Assembly (NCBI GenBank): GCA_905202145.1
Contig: CAJKQY010000001.1
Coordinates: forward strand, 19,782 to 83,781
Length of the DNA: 64,000 nt
Source of the DNA: an uncultured Collinsella sp.
Lineage (GTDB): Bacteria; Actinomycetota; Coriobacteriia; Coriobacteriales; Coriobacteriaceae
Reading direction: 5' to 3'
Position numbers and translations under genes: made by a program
In this document: positions 45,681 through 49,432 of the stretch, piece after piece
How the letters are laid out: every line of letters starts with the position of its first letter
Numbering within the stretch: position 1 is the stretch's first letter
Notes under the pieces: model-generated
The model's database searches: none
What the model was told of the DNA's origin: nothing
Seen by the model: only the letters and a program-made list of their open reading frames with translations

Positions 45681-48329
45681 CTAGCAGACGGCGTAGTCCT
45701 GGGGCTCGCGGCCGTAGTAGGCGTCCAGGTAGAGCTCCTTGATCTCGCTCATGAGCGGGTAGCGCGGGTTAGCGCCGGTGCACTGGTCGTTGAATGCCTG
45801 CTCGGTCATCTCGTCGAGGGTGTCGAGGAAGTACTGCTCGTCAACGCCGTACTCAGCGATGGTGTGCTTGACACCGATGAAGTCGCAGAGCTCGGTGAGC
45901 TTGGCGATGAAGTTCTCGAAGACCTCACGGTCGTCCTTGCCGTCGATGCCGCAGTAACGAGCCATCTCGGCATAGTTGTGCAGCGCGTTGGGGTAAGGAT
46001 ACTGAGAGAAGGTTCCCATCTTGACAGGAGCCTCGGCGGCGTTGTAACGCATGACGCGGGTCAGGATGACTGCGTTTGCGAGGCCGTGGGGCAGATGGTG
46101 GAAAGCGCCGAGCTTGTGGGCCATGGAGTGGTTGAGGCCCAGGAAGGCGTTACCGAATGCCATACCGGCCATGCAGGATGCGTTGTGCATCTCCTCGCGG
46201 GCATGCGGGTCCTTAGCGCCGTTCGTGAAGCTGGAGGGCAGGTTCTCAAAGACGAGCTTGGCGGCGCGCTCGGAGAGGCCCTTGGTGTAGTCGGAAGCCA
46301 TGATGGAGACGTAGGACTCGATGGCGTGGGTCATGACGTCGATGCCAGAGGCAGCGGTGAGGCCCTTCGGGGCGGTCATGCAGTTGTCGGCGTCGACGAT
46401 AGCCATGTTGGGGAGCAGCGCGTAGTCGGCGAGCGGCCACTTGATGCCGGTCTCCTTGTCGGTGATGATGGCGAACGGCGTGCACTCGGAGCCAGTGCCC
46501 GAAGAGGTCGGGACGGCGACGAAGTAAGCCTTCTTGCCCATCTCGGGGAAGGTGAAGATACGCTTGCGGATGTCCATGAAGTCCATGGCCATGTCCTCGA
46601 AGTTCGCCTCGGGGTGCTCGTACATCATCCACATGATCTTGCCGGCGTCCATTGCGGAACCGCCGCCGACGGCGATGATGACATCCGGCTCGAAGAGCGT
46701 CATCTGCTTGGCGCCGCGACGTGCGCACTGCAGGGAGGGATCGGGCTCAACGTCGTAGAAGCAGTCGTGAGCGATGCCCATCTCATCGAGCTTGGCCTCG
46801 ATGGCACGCGTGTTGCCATTCTTGAAGAGGAACTGGTCGGTAACGATGAAGGCGCGCTTCTTGCCCATTACGGTGCCGAGCTCGTCGAGTGCGACGGGCG
46901 TGCAGCCCTTCTTGAAGTAGACCTTCTCGGGTGCGCGGAACCACAGCATGTTCTCGCGGCGCTCTGCCACGGTCTTGACGTTGATCAAGTGCTTCACCCC
47001 AACGTTCTCGGAGACGGAGTTGCCACCCCAGGAGCCGCAGCCCAGGGTTAGAGACGGCTTCATGCCGAAGTTGTAGAGGTCACCGATGCCGCCGTGCGAG
47101 GACGGGGTGTTGATGACGATGCGGCAGGCCTTCATGACGTGCTGGAACTTAGCGATCTTCTCGCTCTGTGCCGGATGCACGTAGAGAGAGGCGGTGTGGC
47201 CCGGGCCACCTGCGAGGACGAGGTGCTCTGCCTTGTCAACGGCCTCCTGGAAGTCCTTGGCGTGATACATAGCGAGGACCGGGGAGAGCTTCTCGTGGGA
47301 GAACTCTTCCTTCTCGGGATCGGTGGAGGTGACCTCGGCGATCAGGATCTTGGTCTTGGCGGGAACCTCGATGCCGGCGAGCTCGGCGATCTTGGCGGCA
47401 GCCATGCCGGGGATGCGGTGATCGAGAGCGCCGTTCTTGAACATGGCGGCACGCAGGGCCTCCATCTCGGCACCCTGCTTGACGAAGTAGCAGCCGCGCT
47501 TCTGGAACTCGGCCTTGACCTGGTCATAGATGGTGTCGATGACGGTGACGGACTGCTCGGAAGCGCAGATCATGCCGTTGTCGAACGTCTTGGAGTGGAT
47601 GATGGAGTTGACGGCGAGCTTGATGTCCGCGGTATCGTCGATGATGACCGGGGTGTTGCCGGCGCCGACGCCGAGTGCGGGCTTACCGGAGGAGTAAGCA
47701 GCCTTAACCATGCCCGGGCCACCGGTTGCGAGAATGATGTCGACGTCGCGCATGACCATGTTGGTCAGCTCGATGGACGGCTTGTCGACCCAGCCGATGA
47801 TGCCCTCAGGAGCACCGGCCTTGACAGCTGCGTCGAGAACGAGCTTGGCGGCGGCGATGGTGCACTTGGCGGCTGCCGGGTGCGGGGAGATGATGATGGC
47901 GTTACGGGTCTTCAGGCAGATGAGCGTCTTGAAGATGGCCGTGGAGGTCGGGTTGGTGGTCGGGATGACAGCGCCAACGATACCGATCGGCTCGGCGACC
48001 TTGGTGATGCCGTAAGCGTCGTCGCGCTCGATGACACCGCAGGTCTTGGTGTTCTTGTAAGCGTTGTAGATGTACTCAGCGGCGTAGTGGTTCTTGATGA
48101 CCTTGTCCTCGAGAACGCCACGGCCGGTCTCCTCGATGGCGAGCTTGGCCAAAGGAATACGAGCCTTGTTGGCGGCCATAGCAGCCTCGTAGAAGATCTT
48201 GTCTACCTGCTCCTGAGTGTACTCAGCGAATTTAGCCTGGGCCTCACGCATAGATTTGAGTTTGGCCTCAAGCGCCTCCACGTTGTCCACGATGGCGGGA
48301 GTAGTGTTTTCCGGTGACTTTTTCACCAT
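45681..48329 (-). CDS. adhE: bifunctional acetaldehyde-CoA/alcohol dehydrogenase
   Basis: 882-aa ALDH + Fe-ADH fusion with conserved AdhE N-terminus (AQAKFAEYTQEQVDKIF). Confidence 0.93.
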   Translation of the reverse strand: MVKKSPENTTPAIVDNVEALEAKLKSMREAQAKFAEYTQEQVDKIFYEAAMAANKARIPLAKLAIEETGRGVLEDKVIKNHYAAEYIYNAYKNTKTCGVIERDDAYGITKVAEPIGIVGAVIPTTNPTSTAIFKTLICLKTRNAIIISPHPAAAKCTIAAAKLVLDAAVKAGAPEGIIGWVDKPSIELTNMVMRDVDIILATGGPGMVKAAYSSGKPALGVGAGNTPVIIDDTADIKLAVNSIIHSKTFDNGMICASEQSVTVIDTIYDQVKAEFQKRGCYFVKQGAEMEALRAAMFKNGALDHRIPGMAAAKIAELAGIEVPAKTKILIAEVTSTDPEKEEFSHEKLSPVLAMYHAKDFQEAVDKAEHLVLAGGPGHTASLYVHPAQSEKIAKFQHVMKACRIVINTPSSHGGIGDLYNFGMKPSLTLGCGSWGGNSVSENVGVKHLINVKTVAERRENMLWFRAPEKVYFKKGCTPVALDELGTVMGKKRAFIVTDQFLFKNGNTRAIEAKLDEMGIAHDCFYDVEPDPSLQCARRGAKQMTLFEPDVIIAVGGGSAMDAGKIMWMMYEHPEANFEDMAMDFMDIRKRIFTFPEMGKKAYFVAVPTSSGTGSECTPFAIITDKETGIKWPLADYALLPNMAIVDADNCMTAPKGLTAASGIDVMTHAIESYVSIMASDYTKGLSERAAKLVFENLPSSFTNGAKDPHAREEMHNASCMAGMAFGNAFLGLNHSMAHKLGAFHHLPHGLANAVILTRVMRYNAAEAPVKMGTFSQYPYPNALHNYAEMARYCGIDGKDDREVFENFIAKLTELCDFIGVKHTIAEYGVDEQYFLDTLDEMTEQAFNDQCTGANPRYPLMSEIKELYLDAYYGREPQDYAVC

Positions 48330-48471
48330 TTGTGTCTCCTTGCGATCGGAGATTTACCCTACGCCTTGCATGATAGCAAGAAATTATTCGGCGAACGGTA
48401 AGATTCCCGTAAAAGGCACACTAAAACGCTTCAACTAAATGAACCGTTTCAACTAATGCTGCATCGCCCCG

Positions 48472-48498
48472 CTCATTGGGGACAGACTTACATGAGTG
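48472..48498. repeat. left arm of 27-bp perfect inverted repeat (CTCATTGGGGACAGACTTACATGAGTG); part of a cluster of direct CTCATT(T)GGGACAGAC copies (also 48503..48520 and partial 48558..48568)
   Basis: Exact reverse complement present at 49114..49140. Confidence 0.9.
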
Positions 48499-48650
48499 CT
48501 TTCACTCATTTGGGACAGACATCGTTTTGCCATTTTGTCGTTCTGGACCTGTTTTTGCCGCTCATTGGATATAAATAGGTTACAGGCTCAGCATTTCGCG
48601 TTCCTTCTCTCCTTTTAGGTGTTGCCTGTTCAGTTTTGAAAGGAGAGAAT

Positions 48651-49235
48651 ATGCCTCGATGCGCCCGCGCCGTTTCGCTCACCGGCTACTACCACGTTTT
48701 TGACCGTGGCAACTCCAAGCAGATTATTTTTGAAGATGACTCCGACCGCTATCGTTTCTTATCGGACATCGCGGACAGGTTTGCACGCCATGAAGTGGCG
48801 GTGTTGGCTTGGTGCCTTATGGATAACCACTTCCATTTGATGGTTGATGACCCATATGACAACCTTTCAAAGGCAATGCAGTGCGCATTGACGGCATATG
48901 CTAAGTATTTCAATGGGAAAACGGGAAGAACGGGGCATCTGTTTGATAATCGCTATTCGCGGGTCGCGGTTGAGTCGGACACGCAGGCGGTGCAGCTGCT
49001 CGACTATATTCATCTCAATCCCGTGAAAGGCGCGCTCGACTCGCTCGAGGCGTACCGTTGGTCAAGCTATAAGGCATACCAGCTGGGCTACGATCCCTTT
49101 GACATCTGCAAACACTCATGTAAGTCTGTCCCCAATGAGTGCAAAAAGGCGCCCTCCGCATGGGAGGACGCCTTTGGTAAGTTCTATGTGAACGCGAGGT
49201 CTTTGACCCGGAGAGTCCGAGGTACTTGTTGGTAA
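48651..49235 (+). CDS. IS200-like / REP-associated tyrosine transposase (Y1_Tnp, HUH)
   Basis: HUH motif HFHLMV and catalytic Tyr region YIHLNPVKG; strong RBS AAAGGAGAG before the ATG at 48651. Confidence 0.75.
   Translation: MPRCARAVSLTGYYHVFDRGNSKQIIFEDDSDRYRFLSDIADRFARHEVAVLAWCLMDNHFHLMVDDPYDNLSKAMQCALTAYAKYFNGKTGRTGHLFDNRYSRVAVESDTQAVQLLDYIHLNPVKGALDSLEAYRWSSYKAYQLGYDPFDICKHSCKSVPNECKKAPSAWEDAFGKFYVNARSLTRRVRGTCW
49114..49140. repeat. right arm of 27-bp perfect inverted repeat, located inside the 3' end of the transposase CDS
   Basis: CACTCATGTAAGTCTGTCCCCAATGAG = reverse complement of 48472..48498. Confidence 0.9.
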
Positions 49236-49243
49236 GACCTTAT

Positions 49244-49432
49244 TTAGGAGCGCGCAACCTTGCCGGACTTGAGGCAGGTGGAGCAAACGTTCATCTTGCG
49301 ACGGTGACCATCGACGACGACGTAGACGCGCTGGATGTTGGGGCGGAACTTACGGTTGGTGACGCGGTGAGAGTGGCTGATGGAGCGACCGGCAACGGGG
49401 TGCTTACCGCAAACTTCGCAAACTTTGGACAT
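49244..49432 (-). CDS. rpmB: 50S ribosomal protein L28
   Basis: MSKVCEVCGKHPVAGRSISHSHRVTNRKFRPNIQ signature; RBS AAGGAGGG. Confidence 0.9.
   Translation of the reverse strand: MSKVCEVCGKHPVAGRSISHSHRVTNRKFRPNIQRVYVVVDGHRRKMNVCSTCLKSGKVARS

Follow-up and report, generated by a model that had tools for sequence, protein, structure and literature searches.

Why should one arm of a perfect 27-bp inverted repeat lie inside the coding sequence of a transposase? This is the question raised by a locus in the 64-kb stretch of Collinsella DNA analysed here (the window). The 27-mer CTCATTGGGGACAGACTTACATGAGTG is found on the forward strand at 48472-48498, and its exact reverse complement occupies 49113-49139. 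An earlier note on this DNA, which placed the right arm one base further along (49114..49140), was correct that the repeat is perfect and that its right arm falls inside the transposase open reading frame (ORF), a frame of 194 codons at 48651-49235. The arm ends 96 nt before the final base of the stop codon. No such 27-mer match occurred in 100 dinucleotide-preserving shuffles of the window (0/100), and no third copy of the 27-mer was found within the 64 kb with 3 mismatches allowed. Complementarity between the arms reaches 33 nt at 94%, and the left arm is followed by a degenerate third half-copy, CTCATTTGGGACAGAC, at 48505-48520.

The arms are very probably the outer, REP-like units that bracket a chromosomally fixed, single-slot gene of the RAYT (REP-associated tyrosine transposase) type, a Y1/HUH gene that has been deleted at its 3' end. 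The features of the locus are as follows, with positions counted along the window and a slash marking the join at a deletion.

45681..48329, minus strand: adhE (bifunctional aldehyde/alcohol dehydrogenase), the left neighbour, from Pfam assignments in syntenic loci.
48470..48498, plus strand: left outer REP-like unit, made of stem CGCTCAT, loop TGGGGACAGACTTAC and stem ATGAGTG; it includes the left arm, 48472-48498.
48503..48520, plus strand: left inner degenerate REP unit, CACTCATTTGGGACAGAC, conserved in 25/25 aligned strains.
48570..48576, plus strand: TATAAAT, a -10-like region that follows the left repeat and precedes the start codon, conserved in all aligned strains; from its sequence, a possible promoter element.
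48651..49109, plus strand: native part of the RAYT-like Y1 transposase gene, codons 1-153, with the HUH motif (H60, H62) and the presumed catalytic Tyr119.
49109..49110, plus strand: junction of a 371-bp deletion, ..GACATCTGC/AAACACTCATG.., from DNA alignment against three full-length loci (L001-L003) and 25 strains.
49110..49235, plus strand: non-native read-through tail of the ORF, 41 codons and a stop, running through the REP unit and then antisense through the rpmB terminator and 3' flank.
49113..49141, plus strand: right outer REP-like unit, CACTCAT GTAAGTCTGTCCCCA ATGAGTG, of which 49113-49139 is the exact reverse complement of the left arm.
49145..49175, minus strand: rpmB intrinsic terminator, a 13-bp stem followed by UUUUU, which abuts the right repeat and marks the outer boundary of the element.
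49244..49432, minus strand: rpmB (ribosomal protein L28), the right neighbour, with PF00830 assigned in syntenic loci.

The gene is a Y1/HUH transposase of the RAYT type, of the domesticated kind, from gut Collinsella. The window ORF matches the Pfam family Y1_Tnp (PF01797) with E = 5.8e-8, above the gathering score, and H60, H62 and Y119 are invariant across the homologues. With the NCBIfam model REP_Tyr_transpos (NF047646), the window protein scores 57 bits, and its relatives P0024, P0111, P0098 and a homologue from Clostridia score 55.4, 53.1, 54.1 and 63.2 bits, all below the 80-bit equivalog cut-off. Since these matches are significant but fall short of the cut-off, the proteins appear to belong to a divergent RAYT subfamily. 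Members of the family match the RAYT model with E values of about 1e-14 to 1e-17, compared with 1e-2 to 1e-4 for the IS200 model, which is below the IS200 cut-off.

A sequence search with P0024 against PDB chains returned only chance hits, and a search by fold was needed. The full-length protein as modelled by AlphaFold (mean pLDDT 84.8) has as its top Foldseek match in the PDB the E. coli RAYT 4ER8 (E = 6.8e-6, TM-score 0.63 on the target), a REP-associated tyrosine transposase bound to a REP hairpin. The TnpA proteins of IS608 and ISDra2 rank after it. The C-terminal 60-70 residues are helical in the model, and the Pfam matches to this region, HTH_23, MarR_2 and HTH_7, are all sub-threshold but share one consistent position. 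On these two grounds, the C-terminal domain of the full-length protein is probably an HTH. The window protein keeps the catalytic core and has lost this helical, HTH-like domain.

In Collinsella, the gene occupies a slot with the order adhE - gene - rpmB - pyrR - pyrB, which is also the gene order around P0024, the commonest full-length form (9882 member sequences). A protein search with the window ORF recovered more than 1300 relatives, the closest of which are 95-98% identical to the window protein over only 79% of the query. Identity stops at residue 153 (..YDPFDIC), exactly at the start of the right arm. The alignment proposed in the earlier note thus confirmed that conservation ends before the C-terminus, although at residue 153 and not near 165. 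Full-length relatives in the adhE-rpmB slot have 256-258 residues and are 96-97% identical to the window protein up to residue 153, and all full-length relatives, from 96% down to 41% identity, have in common the C-terminal region that the window protein lacks.

Comparison of the window with three full-length loci revealed a single clean gap of 371 bp in the window, at 49109/49110, and the same gap is seen against 19 full-length strains. Lost in the deletion were the last 105 codons, the stop codon and, of the right repeat block, the inner half. Wherever the locus is intact, the two blocks lie outside coding sequence, as inverted repeats of 49 nt with 94% complementarity. A check of where the ORFs of other copies end, also suggested in the earlier note, showed that full-length alleles have their own stop codon about 55 nt before the right repeat, which thus lies downstream of the gene. 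Because homology ends at residue 153 and the alignment places a deletion there, the 41 codons that follow are non-native, among them those for the arm-encoded residues KHSCKSVPNEC, which are absent from full-length homologues. Judged from these alignments, the chimeric C-terminus is the product of a 371-bp internal deletion in an older resident gene and not of an insertion. The 194-aa “transposase” annotation thus describes a 3'-truncated allele carrying 41 junk codons, and the inverted repeat is non-coding.

The suggestion that the element ends on the right at the repeat was borne out: the rpmB terminator starts 3-6 nt beyond it. The terminator RNA folds with -23.6 kcal/mol (z = -4.7) and is clear by folding, although a simple consensus terminator scan missed it.

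The nature of the repeat itself became apparent from its distribution. In a genome scan that took one genome per species, the 16-nt core CTCATTKGGGACAGAC was found in at least 120 genome blocks of 8 kb, and among the matches listed almost all are from Collinsella, including C. aerofaciens isolates. About 20 of the blocks listed are the transposase locus. The other listed blocks hold units without the gene, in many different flanks, either single, in tandem or, often, as inverted doublets of 58-91 bp, one of which forms a near-perfect hairpin (-46.6 kcal/mol, z = -11.6). The dispersed doublets carry TTAAATGAG where the units that flank the gene carry TTACATGAG. The units are extragenic, with a median longest stop-free cover of 93 codons versus 389 at random positions in the same loci (p = 6e-58). 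All of the roughly 30 gene-bearing loci recovered with the window-type repeat sit in the adhE-rpmB slot, and a 56%-identical paralogue type (P0098) occupies another.

Each unit is a stem-loop of about 29 nt, with a 7-bp stem and a 15-nt loop starting TGGGGACAG. Across repeat families the start of the loop is kept and the stems carry compensatory changes (CACTCAT/ATGAGTG, TAGTCGT/ACGACTA, ACCACAA/TTGTGGT, GGTGCAT/TGCACC and CGGCACT/ACTGCCG), and the architecture of the left outer unit of the window, with its covarying stems, is also present at other loci. Folding of either arm by itself as DNA was weak, with z-scores (-1 to -1.7) short of significance, so it is the covariation of the stems that supports the small stem-loop. 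The left inner unit together with 48492-48498 forms a further hairpin, ATGAGTG-CTTT-CACTCAT, of 7 bp with a 4-nt loop. Genes for more distant relatives have their own variants of the repeat on either side, TGGTGCATTGGGGTCAGGTTACTTTGCACCA for P0111 (53% identical) and TAGTCATTGGGGACGTTC.. for P0098 (56%).

The dispersal of the core over extragenic sites, singly, in tandem and as REPIN-like doublets, points to a REP/RAYT system and away from an insertion sequence (IS) with terminal repeats. The Collinsella system fits the known REP/RAYT kind and is seen here as a 3'-deleted allele. Its repeat may be far less abundant than those of E. coli or Pseudomonas, to judge from the window, where the 64 kb hold no extra copy.

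Several related repeats were noted in passing. A low-GC Clostridia MAG (L018:5960-6850) encodes a 31%-identical homologue with long hairpins on both sides, CTCATTGGGGACAGACCCTTT-cgcg-AAAGGGTCTGTCCCCAATGAG, that contain the identical 16-nt core; the core is thus conserved across phyla where the protein has strongly diverged. A further hairpin family in Collinsella contigs, CCACCACAATGGGGACAGGCACCTTTGTGGTGG, has the loop start TGGGGACAG and a different stem (L073:2464-2479 and 2834-2849; L036:3848-4233; L020:620-635). Outside Collinsella, the core was matched in a contig labelled Sodaliphilus sp. (L108), which has typical Collinsella-type units and may be mis-binned, and in a Desulfobacteraceae MAG (L010), where the single match, to the T variant (GTCTGTCCCAAATGAG), may be due to chance.

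The window-type junction, here called Δ1, is a recurrent feature of the locus. It is found in the alleles P0001-P0004, as shorter remnants in three species-representative genomes (L017, L074 and L079), and in 39 metagenome contigs from the human gut. About 30 of these 39 contigs are doubly deleted and retain only codons 85-153, many with stop codons, and only two, L145 and L165, resemble the window in retaining codons 1-153. On the right, a second deletion that is independent of the first, Δ2 (..ATGCTC/GAAA..CACTCATG), is present in P0005, P0025 and L066, and a left-hand deletion (..CATGAGT/ATTTCAATGGG) is common to Δ1 and Δ2 remnants. Each of the three types of junction is no more than a few bases from the inner foot of an outer repeat unit. 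The left deletion and Δ2 have the microhomologies AGT and ATGC..GA, which fits an origin by slippage.

In a tree, the Δ1 alleles are polyphyletic and fall into at least three lineages. In the first 459 coding nucleotides, the Δ1 allele of L165 is 99.1-99.3% identical to the full-length genes of L041 and L083 and differs by 3.5-8% from other Δ1 alleles. A single origin of Δ1 was considered and rejected, since both the tree and the nearest-neighbour distances exclude one clade. The junction was probably made more than once. Given this recurrence, equating a shared deletion junction with shared ancestry can mislead.

In two loci (L041:1180-1290 and L147:1000-1125), a fragment of codons ~141-153 lies downstream of a full-length gene and its right repeats. 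This fragment, of 25 nt in L041 and 41 nt in L147, has the Δ1 junction at its end, with another outer unit beyond. If gene and fragment recombined as direct repeats, Δ1 would be regenerated exactly. Site-specific cleavage was also considered as the origin of the junctions and is unnecessary given these relic repeats.

Is the truncated gene dead? Its 153-residue core could be a working enzyme under selection, a shorter RAYT and not a pseudogene, comparable in size to the 165-aa E. coli enzyme, which has no HTH domain. Such a reading, drawn from sequence comparison, is possible but on balance doubtful. The HUH motif and Tyr119 are kept, and all six Δ1 alleles with an intact 5' end have 153 open codons. 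Within a small Δ1 group made up of the window, L145 and L134, most differences are synonymous (14 synonymous and 3 non-synonymous between the window and L134), and dN/dS among deleted alleles is 0.04-0.08, which could mean that the truncated protein is still selected. However, if deleted alleles are regenerated recurrently from full-length genes, a low dN/dS is equally expected without any selection on the truncated protein. The decay of most junction contigs into shorter remnants also speaks against a working core, as does the conservation of the C-terminal domain among full-length relatives down to 41% identity.

It is improbable that the main role of the arms is in RNA, where they would pair over the length of the transposase message and, as a long-range stem, sequester or stabilise it. 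Both arms, if transcribed, do pair as the earlier note had supposed, in the MFE and centroid structures of 48460-49150 (z = -3.7), and they flank the message in full-length alleles too. However, such pairing is trivially expected of a perfect 27-bp complement folded in silico and carries no information on transcription. The only conserved -10-like element, 48570-48576, is downstream of the left arm, which would perhaps place that arm outside the mRNA, and a consensus promoter scan found no promoter upstream of the transposase gene. The repeat matched no Rfam family in the window, nor in eight other loci that carry it. As the identical unit is common, as single copies, tandems and doublets, at extragenic sites that have no gene, no function in the mRNA is needed to explain it.

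It is very unlikely that the locus represents an autonomous IS with 27-bp terminal inverted repeats that inserted between adhE and rpmB, its ORF running into the flank to give a chimeric C-terminus. The right arm is indeed next to host DNA (the rpmB terminator), and the last ~30 codons are host flank, so that the fortuitous read-through proposed earlier is real. Its supposed creation on insertion is contradicted by the 371-bp gap in the alignment, and full-length alleles in the same slot end at their own stop codon, ahead of the repeat. Moreover, among the loci recovered the gene with the window-type repeat is found only between adhE and rpmB, a 53%-identical relative in the same slot points to long residence, the repeat unit is dispersed without the gene, and Y1 transposons of the IS200/IS605 type use no terminal inverted repeats.

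A dual role of the right arm, as a structural repeat that also encodes a functional part of the transposase (..KHSCKSVPNECKK..), can be dismissed with near certainty: P0001 and P0002 keep the stretch in frame throughout, and P0003 and P0004 do so up to ..ECKK, but it is absent from all full-length homologues, where the repeat is non-coding, its DNA is read in another frame, THVSLSPMSAKRRPP, in the alleles P0005, P0025 and P0011, the tails downstream are frame-shifted (P0003, P0004 and L136) or carry a 6-nt insertion (L134 and L145), and the conservation of the DNA is explained by a REP unit that stands at many non-coding sites.

The preferred reading, of outer REP-like units around a resident RAYT-type gene deleted at its 3' end, can be set out as a series of steps. 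The REP-like unit would fold on single-stranded DNA and serve as the recognition site of the enzyme, by analogy with E. coli TnpA(REP) and IS608 TnpA. In intact alleles, a 258-aa gene lies between two non-coding repeat blocks of about 50 nt. The 371-bp deletion joined codon 153 to the outer right unit, and the truncated ORF continues across the repeat, then antisense through the rpmB terminator, until it meets a stop by chance. The junction could be regenerated by recombination of the gene with a relic fragment of 25-41 nt that already carries it.

Among known systems, E. coli TnpA(REP)/YafM with its REP/BIME sequences (RAYT Group 2; 4ER8) provides the best structural match and the best NCBIfam model. 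In both, the gene sits at a fixed extragenic slot with inverted copies of a hairpin repeat, and the repeat is also scattered over extragenic sites. However, the Collinsella protein has only about 19% identity to its E. coli counterpart, is below the curated family cut-off, comes from an actinobacterial host and carries an extra C-terminal helical, HTH-like domain of about 100 aa, whereas E. coli TnpA(REP) has no HTH domain. The repeats differ as well: the E. coli REP has a GC-rich stem preceded by GTAG, and the Collinsella unit has a short 7-bp stem and a large, conserved 15-nt loop (TGGGGACAG..).

The same HUH/Y1 fold is found in IS608 and ISDra2 of the IS200/IS605 group. Elements of this group have no inverted terminal repeats, are multi-copy and move as a unit, and their hairpin-forming ends, with subterminal hairpins on the same strand, act as single-stranded DNA. 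The Collinsella gene, in contrast, is confined to a single slot among the loci recovered, its repeats are inverted and dispersed without the gene, and it matches the RAYT HMM far better than the IS200 HMM. The fixed slot, the inverted flanking repeats and the dispersed extragenic copies with their doublets thus favour the REP/RAYT picture over IS200/IS605. There is also a resemblance to the formation of MITEs by internal deletion, since the locus presents a graded series in which both outer units are kept and the start-to-start spacing of the core repeats falls from ~990-1080 bp at full length to ~650 bp in the window and 229-243 bp in L017 and L079. Unlike MITEs, the shortened forms stay at the adhE-rpmB slot, and no moved form was seen.

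The REPIN-RAYT systems of Pseudomonas fluorescens, reportedly described by Bertels and Rainey in 2011, resemble that of Collinsella in their inverted REP doublets, which form long hairpins (58-91 bp here), and in having the RAYT in a conserved slot. The P. fluorescens systems were treated further by Bertels et al. 2017 (PMC5581495), and loss or decay of the RAYT in some strains, a feature of the Collinsella locus too, has been described for other RAYTs (bioRxiv 10.1101/2021.07.10.451892; likewise PMC5581495). Abundant REPs have been reported only with Group 2 and Group 3 RAYTs, with examples from Escherichia and Pseudomonas (PMC5581495), whereas the present system is in Collinsella.

A bolder proposal may tentatively be made, although we think it less likely to be right than wrong: that this is a RAYT-REPIN system outside Proteobacteria, made of an HTH-added RAYT and a large-loop repeat, whose locus repeatedly collapses to a doublet with Δ1 regenerated, and whose core is perhaps active. 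To our knowledge, work on REP/RAYT systems has been confined almost entirely to Proteobacteria, and a literature search found no paper describing REP or RAYT in Collinsella. The Collinsella example, from an actinobacterium abundant in the human gut, offers a tractable setting in which the proposed co-dependence of RAYT and REPIN can be tested on natural variation, with hundreds of sequenced strains that carry full-length, truncated or remnant alleles at one locus.

Some further variation around the locus was observed. In L129:2126-3624, and also in L130 and L133, the adhE-rpmB slot, with flanks 94-99% identical to those of the window, holds the 53%-identical transposase P0111 (297 aa) and several tandem copies of the TGGTGCATTGGGGTCAGGTTACTTTGCACCA repeat family. 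It looks as though the whole gene-plus-repeat cassette had been replaced between close relatives. Strains also differ in how many repeat units stand at the right end of the locus, with one or two extra tandem units in L024, L076 and L052. In two metagenome contigs (L167:10075-10231 and L156:2514-2620), the right arm or its outer flank is broken or replaced by unrelated sequence (..CATATAAGTCTG/CTTATAGGACAAAATG.. and ..GAGTGCCCTTGGGAAGCG..), which suggests further rearrangement or insertion at the repeat.

Between adhE and the left arm, the window has a direct repeat, AAACGCTTCAACTAA / AACCGTTTCAACTAA, at 48420-48456, where other strains have AAACGCTTCAATAAACTGAAGCGTTT, a 10-bp hairpin; it is possibly an element of the adhE upstream region with a role in regulation or termination. 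Finally, the two arms of the rpmB terminator stem differ between strains (window 49148-49172 versus L027 and L019) in a partly compensatory way, as in GGCGCCCTCC..GGAGGGCGCC versus GGAACCCTCC..GGAGGGCTCC.
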